Below, piece after piece: positions 63,658-64,000 of a stretch of DNA of 64,000 nucleotides. The notes under the pieces are model-generated. The model was not told the origin of the DNA. It ran no database searches and saw only the letters and a list, made by a program, of their open reading frames with translations. This stretch comes from a virus. Taxonomy: Duplodnaviria > Caudoviricetes. The position numbers and the translations under genes were made by a program. The stretch is taken from the IMG/VR virus record IMGVR_UViG_3300010429_000387, positions 1 to 64,000 of that record; one strand, given 5' to 3'. Position 1 is the first letter of the stretch; every line of letters begins with the position of its first letter.

Positions 63658-63686
63658 TTGACCCCGTCCAACTGGTGTTATAGCCT
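63658..63686 (+). promoter_or_regulatory. Sigma70-type promoter
   Basis: TTGACC-N17-TAGCCT with upstream A-tracts. Confidence 0.65.
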
Positions 63687-63693
63687 TGCAGGA

Positions 63694-63975
63694 GTGCCGC
63701 GACCTATTTCAGGGGCGGCTCAACCGGAGTCTCAAGTGTCCTCACTATCCAGTCGCAAACCAGAATCCATGAAGGCGCAATCAGCGCTTCTGGATTCGTG
63801 CGTCTTGGGTTGTGGAGCCACATTTGCGCTCGCAACGGCCCTTATTCAGCCCTGGTATCCCACCTCCAAGCGTCATTCCAATCCGGAGGTGGGACCATAG
63901 GGCGGCTAGACTGAGATACGGACTCCCGTAACTCGAAGCCGCCCTGGGAAACCAGAGGCGGCTTCAGTCGTTTCA
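63694..63975 (+). promoter_or_regulatory. Candidate leader-peptide attenuator
   Basis: Leader ORF ends TAG-GGC-GGC-TAG; AGGGCGGCT (63899-63907) is complementary to the 5' arm of hairpin GAAGCCGCCCTGG-GAAA-CCAGAGGCGGCTTC (63935-63965). Confidence 0.55.
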
Positions 63976-64000
63976 GGGGTCTTCGTCGAGCTGGATCGAC

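Follow-up and report, generated by a model that had tools for sequence, protein, structure and literature searches.

Attenuators of the amino-acid operons of enterobacteria (trp, his, leu, thr, ilv, and pheA) control biosynthetic enzymes. T-box leaders are likewise terminator/antiterminator switches tied to tRNA supply, and their targets are synthetase and amino-acid genes and do not include tRNA genes. The antitermination signals of rrn-operon leaders and the put and nut RNAs of phages are leaders without an ORF. Large phages carry many tRNA genes. Published papers connect these phage tRNAs to the evasion of host tRNA-cutting defenses, and our literature searches found no paper on how phage tRNA arrays are controlled. 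Here, we describe a conserved leader that, in contrast to the amino-acid operon attenuators, precedes tRNA genes.

The window (the whole 64,000-nt stretch of DNA analyzed) covers the first 64 kb of a phage genome that is complete at 407 kb. A first-pass annotation of the window had predicted an attenuator leader at its very end and regulated genes or tRNAs past that end, and inspection of the adjoining sequence did reveal a tRNA array there. Forty-seven tRNA genes, on the same strand as the leader, start at 64156, directly beyond the window, and are followed by a tmRNA gene. The first tRNA block after the leader consists of tRNA-Tyr, Tyr, Lys, Lys, and Gln, and the array as a whole spans all amino acids. 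The spacer ahead of tRNA-Asn (64653-64932) is conserved, and because a conserved TTGACA box and a better terminator-like hairpin precede that tRNA, the control exerted by the leader may be limited to the first five tRNAs. In the array region, the terminator scan was uninformative, calling 17 sites where 14.1 were expected. The features of the leader are as follows.

63627..63657, + strand: A-rich stretch upstream of the −35 box, UP-element-like
63658..63663, + strand: −35 box TTGACC
63681..63686, + strand: −10-like box TAGCCT, 17 nt after TTGACC
63696..63719, + strand: hairpin at the 5' end of the leader RNA (centroid fold)
63726..63729, + strand: Shine-Dalgarno word GGAG, 6 nt upstream of the start codon
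63736..63900, + strand: sORF1, GTG start, 54 codons, stop codon TAG at 63898-63900
63763..63797, + strand: hairpin 0, inside sORF1
63849..63903, + strand: hairpin A (segments 1 and 2'), with a 17-nt loop
63899..63907, + strand: segment 2 (AGGGCGGCU), the switch strand, beginning at the second base of the stop codon
63907..63909, + strand: second in-frame TAG
63913..63934, + strand: hairpin B, between segments 2 and 3
63935..63965, + strand: hairpin C (segments 3 and 4), candidate terminator, 13 pairs and a GAAA loop
63966..63979, + strand: conserved tail AGUCGUUUCAGGGG, found once in the genome

Seventeen distinct versions of this leader were found in related giant-phage DNA, and the same layout is kept in all of them. 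In 16 of the 17, tRNA genes follow within 430 nt, and the first called tRNA is tRNA-Tyr in 13. A loose DNA pattern applied to viral contigs gave 123 stretches that were judged to be mostly chance matches to G+C-rich sequence. The stricter pattern substituted for it gave 105 metagenome and 78 genome matches, and a profile search over 326 loci retained 34, which yielded the 17 distinct leaders and four non-members. Loci L179 and L199 were rejected as ordinary hairpins downstream of genes and L175 as a chance match, while L201, whose sequence is cut and uncertain, was not counted. The only true leader among the 78 genome-contig matches, L316, lies on a 255-kb contig filed in a bacterial bin. BLAST searches against deposited phages returned only two 80-nt pieces, both in Pseudomonas phages. 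In Rfam searches, only tRNA and tmRNA matched at the gathering score, with no leader or riboswitch family matching the leader, and at E values up to 10 the region 63001-65000 gave chance-level matches only, among them no T-box and no known antitermination RNA. A covariance model detected no second copy of the element elsewhere in the 407-kb genome.

The TTGACC-N17-TAGCCT promoter proposed in the first-pass annotation is present letter for letter, and its −35 box is conserved, the columns C-T-T-G-A(-C) being invariant in eight aligned leaders. At the aligned −10 position, the relatives have TAGGCT, TAGGGT, or TATGGT. The words AAAAAGACC ahead of TTGAC are retained in most of the eight, and the A-rich stretch there may serve as an UP element. 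The pattern TTGAC-N17-19-TAGSNT occurs twice in the window against an expectation of 0.33 (5 of 100 shuffles reach two), and a looser promoter pattern has six matches in the 407-kb genome, three of which were judged clean; a sigma-70 scan did not call this promoter. A leader at 34013, to which the present one had been likened, has the same promoter type, the comparison being one of promoter type only. Contigs from two RNA runs begin at 63703 and 63717, which is a weak hint of a nearby transcription start. In the 5'-end hairpin there is another copy of AGGGGCGGCT (63711-63720), for which pairing with segment 3 is possible (−19.2 kcal/mol); this copy is not retained in the relatives.

Two start codons had been suggested for the leader ORF, GTG 63694 and ATG 63769, neither of which is conserved. 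The conserved start is GTG 63736, and an aligned in-frame GTG or ATG opens ORFs of 50 to 78 codons in all 16 complete leaders. By a loose pattern, a purine-rich, Shine-Dalgarno-like word lies 4 to 13 nt upstream of the aligned start in 11 of 16. The homologues of sORF1 have nine different lengths, all in frame; frame 0 is stop-free in 16 of 16 leaders, whereas frame +1 is so in 1 and frame +2 in 6 of the 16. Median pN/pS is 0.83, and it is 0.79 in the nine phages whose neighboring protein gene has a value of 0.31. Judged from these sequence comparisons, the sORF1 frame is kept open but its peptide is hardly constrained. Codon adaptation (0.531) is as low as that of out-of-frame sequence and falls in the lowest 0.55% of gene windows, a value equally compatible with rare codons having been selected and with RNA structure determining the sequence. 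The conserved codons are not the rare ones, since the last 16 codons stand at the 32nd percentile of gene windows.

The leader RNA is highly structured: the minimum free energy of 63690-64000 is −141 kcal/mol versus −109.5 ± 5.9 kcal/mol for shuffled sequences (z = −5.4; 0 of 100 as good). The elements named earlier, namely AGGGCGGCT at 63899-63907, AGCCGCCCT at 63937-63945, and the GAAA-capped hairpin at 63935-63965, were all found in place, and the minimum-energy fold includes the hairpins that had been described. Within sORF1, hairpin 0 retains five apical pairs, each with compensatory changes (RNAalifold, 15 leaders, L009 excluded). The lower stem of hairpin A (63849-54/63898-903) pairs the stop codon, and its upper stem is formed by 63858-67 and 63885-94; the upper stem shows 90.6% pairing across the 17 leaders, with double changes in 4 of its 10 pairs, and pairing in the lower helices is 81 to 97%. 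The apical helix of hairpin B is 93% paired, with double changes in all four pairs. Hairpin C, of which the genome holds one copy, is 84.3% paired, with double changes in 5 of 13 pairs. Taken together, hairpins A, B, and C covary, with double changes in 19 of 37 pairs, and none of 500 shuffles reaches any of five measures.

Segment 2 is complementary to segment 3 (AGCCGCCCT, 63937-63945) and copies the pairing face of segment 4. Of the 14-nt stretches upstream, the one at the stop codon makes the best duplex with segment 3, or ties for the best, in 16 of 17 leaders, and the 2:3 pairing is 87.6% paired, whereas sliding the partner gives no more than 57%. Its covariation is not significant (one pair with a double change; 56 to 242 of 500 shuffles score as high). 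The proposed 2:3 switch pairing thus rests on conserved complementarity and not on significant covariation. The 1:2/2:3/3:4 layout read from the window holds up in the comparison, being kept in 17 leaders, with both alternative pairings forming in constrained folds. Unconstrained folding gives hairpins A, B, and C in all 17 leaders. Blocking the 5' arm of hairpin A in an RNA truncated behind segment 3 gives the 2:3 stem in all 17, with hairpin B stacked on top of it. In the full-length RNA with segment 1 blocked, the 2:3 stem is favored in 7 leaders and hairpin C in 10, which indicates that the two are nearly equal in energy. Every leader carries, in or at segment 2, either the first stop codon or one located three codons further on; in the two leaders without the first stop, the next stop is at the 3' edge of that segment.

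Hairpin C has a strong stem, and a termination reading meets a weak U-tract as well as RNA contigs that cross the hairpin. A gap separates the short U-tract from the stem, the T-run rule (5 in 8) holds for 6 of 17 leaders but not for the window, and the terminator scan did not call hairpin C. In the tail that follows, C-G-T-T-T is invariant and the next A-G-G nearly so among the 17 leaders. The tail could pair with CCUGGGA of hairpin C, a pairing that is 97.5% paired and invariant, with no covariation. Contigs from three RNA libraries (63605-64203, 63703-64566, and 63717-64538) run through hairpin C into tRNA-Tyr and tRNA-Lys. This fits cotranscription of the leader with the first tRNAs, DNA carry-over into the RNA libraries being not excluded, and it means that any termination is at most partial. 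Contigs of this kind give no RNA levels before and after the hairpin, and the missing cover by RNA-run contigs over 63001-63600 is uninformative.

The best explanation, to which we give about an even chance, is that the leader is a ribosome-dependent transcription attenuator of the trp type gating the first tRNA block, and that ribosome speed probably decides tRNA output. From the host-type promoter TTGACC-N17-TAGCCT, an RNA would start near 63693, and the 54-codon sORF1 (63736-63900) would be translated, its last 17 codons lying in hairpin A and its stop codon forming the first part of segment 2. Two situations would then lead to the same fold. (i) A ribosome at the stop codon would cover segment 2, so that segments 3 and 4 pair. 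(ii) Without a ribosome, segment 2 would be held in hairpin A and segments 3 and 4 would again pair. The resulting hairpin C, with its short U-run, would make part of the polymerases stop before the tRNAs. If the ribosome is instead held up on the 5' arm of hairpin A (codons P-W-Y-P-T-S-K-R-H-x-N), segment 2 would be free to pair with segment 3, and this stem, topped by hairpin B, would preclude hairpin C and let transcription proceed into tRNA-Tyr, Tyr, Lys, Lys, and Gln. The parts of the leader, their conservation, and the competing folds are established here; the start site, termination at hairpin C, and what slows the ribosome are parts of the attenuator model that we infer.

A further, rather doubtful step would be to regard the leader as a codon-matched gauge of the tRNAs under its control. 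Segment 2 would then be released, and the block turned on, whenever a ribosome on the 5' arm of hairpin A had to wait for Tyr-, Lys-, or Gln-tRNA; the tRNAs would be made only upon failure of the host supply, e.g., after anticodon nuclease attack, and the block would shut off again once the phage tRNAs had restored decoding. Single Tyr, Lys, and Gln codons do occur within the last 22 codons of 16, 16, and 14 of the 17 leaders, compared with 7.7, 11.2, and 9.4 expected under independence, and those for Lys and Gln are neighbors of the Tyr codon. In the remainder of the ORF, Tyr makes up 0.2% of codons, compared with 2.7% genome-wide. The Tyr codon, which occupies five or more different places within the last 22 codons of these 16 leaders, is mostly TAT, the rarer Tyr codon in the genome, as read off the leaders and not from a tabulated count. 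No tandem run of regulatory codons was found in the sORF1 leaders, and codon matching carries little information because the array spans all amino acids.

Several other explanations start from the same parts. It is possible, though we consider it unlikely, that the leader is a structured operon leader and not a regulated terminator, with hairpin C and its single-stranded tail acting as a loading or processing signal. Such a signal could be a processive-antitermination site of the rrn-leader or put kind for about 10 kb of untranslated, hairpin-rich tRNA DNA, or a nuclease site releasing a tRNA precursor, in which case leader translation would merely modulate folding or stability. The tail speaks for a signal of this sort, since an exact conserved word occurring once in the genome is not required of a plain U-tract; so do the weak U-run, the RNA contigs passing through hairpin C, and the further conserved hairpins and words that lie between leader and tRNA in many relatives. 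However, in four leaders the distance from the tail to the first tRNA is only 67 to 85 nt, so that elements downstream of the tail are dispensable, and no known antitermination RNA family matches in Rfam. Such a signal also leaves unexplained both the ORF, which is kept open and ends exactly in segment 2 in all 17 leaders, and the way segment 2 mimics segment 4 in its pairing face. Alternatively, sORF1 could be an ordinary gene for a small protein that ends in a terminator of its own, with the tRNAs expressed through leakage or from other promoters. This would account for the conserved ORF, start codon, and ribosome-binding word and for a hairpin after the ORF, and GGTGTA words occur near and within the array. 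We nevertheless hold this to be very improbable: the peptide is hardly constrained even where the neighboring gene is, its codon adaptation is among the lowest of the genome's gene windows, no Pfam family matches it, and the complementarity of segments 2 and 3 would have no role. Moreover, no TTGAC...TAG-type promoter was seen between hairpin C and tRNA-Tyr.

Two more possibilities turn on the end of the ORF. The nascent peptide might be an arrest sensor: its C terminus would respond to a small molecule or to the condition of the translation machinery by holding the ribosome at the stop codon or close to it, and this stalled ribosome would set the fold of segments 2 to 4 or block access of Rho. 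The C-terminal 16 to 17 residues (W-Y-P-T-S-K-R-H-x-N-P-E-V-G-x-stop) are indeed the best-conserved part of the peptide, with Trp about 15 residues ahead of the stop in 11 of 17 leaders and Pro as the final residue in 6 of 17, and the stop codon lies within the switch strand. However, the codons for these residues also make up hairpin A, so that RNA pairing explains their conservation. The last 17 codons have a pN/pS of 0.72, which indicates little selection on the peptide; the final residue varies (P, T, S, K, R, Q, or I); and a ribosome held at the stop would favor hairpin C, leaving no obvious "on" state. We judge an arrest peptide quite improbable. The end of the ORF in the window reads as the first-pass annotation gave it (E-V-G-P, TAG at 63898-63900, GGC GGC, and TAG at 63907-63909), and amber readthrough had been put forward as a means of control, in which a phage tRNA(CUA) would read one or both TAGs and ribosomes entering hairpin B or C would alter termination. 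The position of the first stop is occupied by TAG in 14 of 17 leaders, two tRNA(CUA) genes are present in this phage and one or two in all four relatives' records searched, and a backup stop three codons on (TAG, TAA, or TGA), present in 7 of the 15 leaders retaining the first stop, would fit a leaky first stop. Yet the A and G of TAG belong to segment 2 and to the lower stem of hairpin A, and this pairing alone suffices to explain the preference for TAG; one leader has TGA and two have a sense codon at this position. At the position of the second stop, 9 of 17 leaders have a stop (TAG in 5, TAA in 2, and TGA in 2; the sole stop in 2) and 8 have none, so that the double TAG, although present in the window, recurs as a second TAG in only 5 of 17. 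Likewise, the frame does run open behind both TAGs past 64000 here but closes within 2 to 32 codons in all seven relatives checked, which lack the conserved coding extension behind the stop that would mark programmed readthrough. A ribosome at the +3 stop would still be short of segment 3. Genome-wide TAG recoding was considered and rejected: TAG closes 96 of 347 long ORFs, no excess of open frames was seen behind it, and coding-like flanks on both sides were found for 30 of 356 TAG, 38 of 741 TGA, and 7 of 60 TAA codons. With neither the double TAG nor the open extension conserved, amber readthrough is unsupported, and a switch built on it appears highly unlikely.

If the attenuator is a working switch, the textbook control of amino-acid operons would extend to tRNA genes, a feedback loop would link decoding speed and tRNA supply, and 17 natural variants of a compact RNA part of some 300 nt would be at hand for testing. 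Regardless of the switch, these findings define the transcription unit, identify which leader ORF is the true one, and show that megaphage tRNA arrays are headed by a conserved structured RNA that is new.

Among known systems, T-boxes are set apart by the lack of a match at E values up to 10 and by the translated ORF that here replaces the tRNA-binding stem. A hairpin and a short invariant single-stranded word heading a long untranslated RNA operon presumably resemble the antitermination leaders of rrn operons and the put and nut RNAs of phages. This likeness is one of layout only, and the tail word is unique in the phage genome. From the amino-acid operon attenuators, the phage leader differs in its weak U-tract, in having no Rfam leader match, and in the absence of tandem regulatory codons, i.e., of a codon run cognate to its product. 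Its ORF is also longer (50 to 78 codons) and is itself highly structured. What the phage leader shares with those attenuators is a short leader ORF, for which translation is predicted from sequence; the mutually exclusive pairings 1:2, 2:3, and 3:4; a stop codon placed over segment 2, such that a terminating ribosome would mask it; and the 3:4 hairpin as the default fold without a ribosome.

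The leader (63658-64000) forms the 5' part of a gap of about 600 nt between a divergently oriented protein gene, for which no Pfam family was found, and the first gene of a tRNA array. The first-pass annotation had expected regulated genes or tRNAs beyond the window, and a very large tRNA array is indeed found there. The record that carries the window is a single sequence of 407,078 bp, classified as a complete viral genome bearing direct terminal repeats, in which ARAGORN called 52 RNA genes. The features are as follows.

33975-34003 (window): clean promoter-like site
35459-35532 and 35791-35867 (inside the window): two tRNA(CUA) genes, amber anticodon (ARAGORN and Rfam)
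62926-63540, minus strand: divergent protein gene upstream of the leader
64156-77220, plus strand throughout: 47 tRNA genes (ARAGORN)
78986-79337: tmRNA (ARAGORN, confirmed by Rfam)
329417, minus strand: clean promoter-like site
near 347 kb, minus strand: two tRNAs (ARAGORN)

Over 63001-80000, Rfam confirmed 39 tRNAs and the tmRNA. No other family reached the gathering score there or in the window, and none besides tRNA appeared over 63001-65000 at E values up to 10. The leader is followed by tRNA-Tyr, a second Tyr-like gene, Lys, Lys, and Gln. The first tRNA-Tyr was called by ARAGORN only and missed by Rfam, and the Tyr-like gene (64243-64329; 1243-1329 of L001, the window's own copy), recognized by eye, shows a GTA anticodon loop, encodes its CCA end, and was called by neither program. 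A second small ORF beginning M-G-I-T-D-L-Y-R runs from ATG 64102 (L001 1102-1250, genome 64102-64250), is provided with an SD-like word, and extends into tRNA-Tyr; its D/G/N-R-Y-R motif is kept in a sub-clade, with an in-frame 18-nt insertion in one relative, and the ORF is absent where the leader-tRNA gap is short. Further into the array, the tRNA-Gln/tRNA-Asn spacer (64653-64932; L001 1653-1932), about 245 to 280 nt long, is conserved in all eight aligned relatives. It contains a TTGACA box, a GTGATCGAC block that does not vary, and, directly before tRNA-Asn, a hairpin followed by a true T-run; the spacer may be a second control unit within the array.

Relatives were collected by two routes. 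Searching with the divergent protein gave 12 loci on IMG/VR contigs as long as 513 kb, and in nine of them the order is leader, tRNA-Tyr, Lys, Lys, Gln, Asn. A pattern composed of hairpin C (the GAAA-capped candidate terminator) and its tail matched 8 viral, 105 metagenome, and 78 genome stretches. A profile search of 326 loci kept 34, which after removal of duplicates gave 4 non-members and 17 distinct leaders, of which 16 are complete and one is truncated at the 5' end. A covariance model built from the 17 leaders finds exactly one copy in the 407-kb genome. In 16 of the 17, tRNA genes lie at most 430 nt downstream, Tyr being called first in 13. The sole leader without tRNAs behind it, the metagenomic L241, continues into unrelated DNA at 337-600 that resembles coding sequence, perhaps an inserted homing-endonuclease-like gene. 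One leader from the genome contigs, L316, is followed by tRNA-Tyr, Lys, and Lys on a 255-kb contig that was placed in a Deltaproteobacteria bin but is probably of giant-phage origin. DNA nearly identical to 63501-65500 (L001 501-2500) is present in anaerobic-digester, activated-sludge, and wastewater runs of several studies, and the record may derive from two of these runs.

The leader is real and strongly conserved, and all motifs and coordinates in the first-pass annotation proved correct. The RNA of 63690-64000 folds at -141 kcal/mol, versus -109.5 ± 5.9 for shuffled sequences (z = -5.4). On a model-guided alignment of the 17 leaders, 81.5% of alignment cells pair, both sides have changed in 19 of 37 pairs, and none of 500 shuffles reached any of five structure measures; the covariation score was 0.215, and it fell to 0.084 or less when the partners were slid by 1 to 3 columns. 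Several compensatory pairs were found in each of hairpin A (upper stem), hairpin B, and hairpin C. In hairpin 0, inside the leader ORF, five apical pairs are retained, and every one of them shows compensatory changes; the count is over 15 leaders, L009 being left out because of a long insertion.

Hairpin A holds the switch strand, segment 2 (AGGGCGGCU, 63899-63907), whose first base is the second of the stop codon and which is complementary to segment 3 (63937-63945), in the 5' arm of hairpin C. In 16 of 17 leaders, no upstream 14-mer forms a better duplex with segment 3 than the one at the stop codon, and in L010 and L011 segment 3 has one C fewer and segment 2 one G fewer. The 2:3 pairs are 87.6% paired on the fixed alignment, a figure that drops to 57% or less when slid; four leaders that are one base out of register account for most of the "unpaired" cells. 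Covariation of the 2:3 pairs does not reach significance (56 and 81 of 500 shuffles scored as high, with one double-change pair), because both strands hardly vary. Folding of the alternative structures, as the first-pass annotation had proposed, gave hairpins A, B, and C in all 17 leaders when unconstrained. When the 5' arm of hairpin A was blocked and the RNA was truncated after segment 3, all 17 formed a 2:3 stem bearing hairpin B, and in the full-length RNA with the same block the 2:3 stem won in 7 and hairpin C in 10, indicating that the two states differ little in energy, which is what a kinetic switch requires. The switch strand has an additional copy, AGGGGCGGCT (63711-63720), in a 5' untranslated hairpin; this copy could also pair with segment 3, at -19.2 kcal/mol, and was not found in the relatives.

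Neither of the two ORF starts proposed earlier is conserved among the leaders. An aligned GTG or ATG instead opens an ORF of 50 to 78 codons in all 16 complete leaders, preceded at 4 to 13 nt by an SD-like word in 11; in the window it is GTG 63736, with GGAG at 63726-29. The frame is stop-free in 16/16 leaders, versus 1/16 for frame +1 and 6/16 for frame +2, and the nine different ORF lengths are all in frame. The leader peptide itself is barely constrained: the median pN/pS is 0.83 (120 pairs), and in the same nine phages it is 0.79 versus 0.31 for the neighbouring protein gene. Codon adaptation (0.531) falls in the lowest 0.55% of gene windows, and out-of-frame windows average 0.60. What is conserved is the openness of the ORF and the places of its start and stop, not the protein. 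Such a pattern is the hallmark of a regulatory leader ORF and speaks against a small protein with a function of its own.

The codon at the E-V-G-x-stop place is TAG in 14, TGA in 1, and a sense codon (AGG, CAG) in 2 of the 17 leaders, both of the latter having a stop three codons later. The first-pass annotation had suggested that amber readthrough of two TAGs might exert the control, and tRNA(CUA) is kept in the clade (two genes here, one or two in all four relatives' records searched). However, among the 15 leaders that retain the first stop, a second one at +3 codons is TAG in 5, TAA in 1, and TGA in 1, the frame behind the stops is open in the window only (it closes in all 7 relatives checked), and there is no sign of genome-wide TAG recoding. 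The preference for TAG is explained by RNA pairing, since its A and G are paired in hairpin A and again in the 2:3 stem. On these grounds, readthrough is a minor possibility and not the conserved logic. Similar tRNA(CUA) genes lie some 15 to 30 kb from the array leader in three complete related genomes, and two more are present in a fourth, incomplete record.

In the promoter region, the alignment covers 8 leaders and shows little or no variation in the -35 box and the A-rich words 5' of it, with TAGCCT, TAGGCT, TAGGGT, or TATGGT at the -10 place. The window has two TTGAC-N17-19-TAGSNT sites versus 0.33 expected (5 of 100 shuffles reached two). By our count, the 407-kb genome has three clean sites of the form TTGAC-N17-19-TAG(G/C)NT, and the one at 33975 heads a unit ending in the two tRNA(CUA) genes. 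A simple promoter scan did not call the leader promoter, which host polymerase would presumably read. Two GGTGTA words lie upstream of this promoter on the plus strand (63570-63575 and 63607-63612), and one RNA-library contig starts at 63605.

The tail of hairpin C (A/C-G-N-C-G-U-U-U-Y-A-G-G) is nearly invariant and has no second copy in the genome. A count of 5 T in 8 is reached in only 6 of the 17 leaders, and a simple terminator scan did not call the hairpin. The tail could pair with CCUGGGA atop hairpin C (97.5% paired, with no variation on which covariation could be assessed). Contigs from three metatranscriptome runs (three study codes, one year and habitat) span 63605-64203, 63703-64566, and 63717-64538. 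All three bridge hairpin C and reach the tRNA-Tyr gene, the last two going on to tRNA-Lys; thus, termination, if any, is partial. The contigs, which give no local depth and may include DNA carry-over, fit co-transcription of the leader with the tRNAs. Two of them begin at 63703 and 63717, which weakly hints at a 5' end just behind the -10 box.

The best-supported, still unproven, reading is an attenuator. Of the attenuator first proposed, the layout and the alternative folds, kept in 17 leaders, are supported; the double TAG and readthrough are not. A ribosome at the stop would cover segment 2, and with no ribosome hairpin A would stay intact; either way hairpin C could form. Segment 2 would become free for the 2:3 stem only if a ribosome were held on the 5' arm of hairpin A. 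In 16 of 17 leaders, versus 7.7 expected if independent, the last 22 codons include a Tyr codon, at five or more different positions, and Tyr makes up 0.2% of the remaining leader-ORF codons versus 2.7% genome-wide; Lys and Gln codons occur there in 16/17 and 14/17. Beside the Tyr, Tyr-like, Lys, Lys, Gln block this fits codon matching, as a post-hoc observation on related leaders in front of an array that as a whole covers all amino acids. Among the papers listed by searches on the control of phage tRNA arrays and on stop-codon recoding and suppressor tRNAs in huge phages, none concerned attenuation of phage tRNA arrays; phage tRNAs are discussed there as counter-measures to host tRNA cleavage (PMC10264068, PMC11464382). 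A run of identical codons is absent from the leader. Its layout matches that of a trp-type attenuator.
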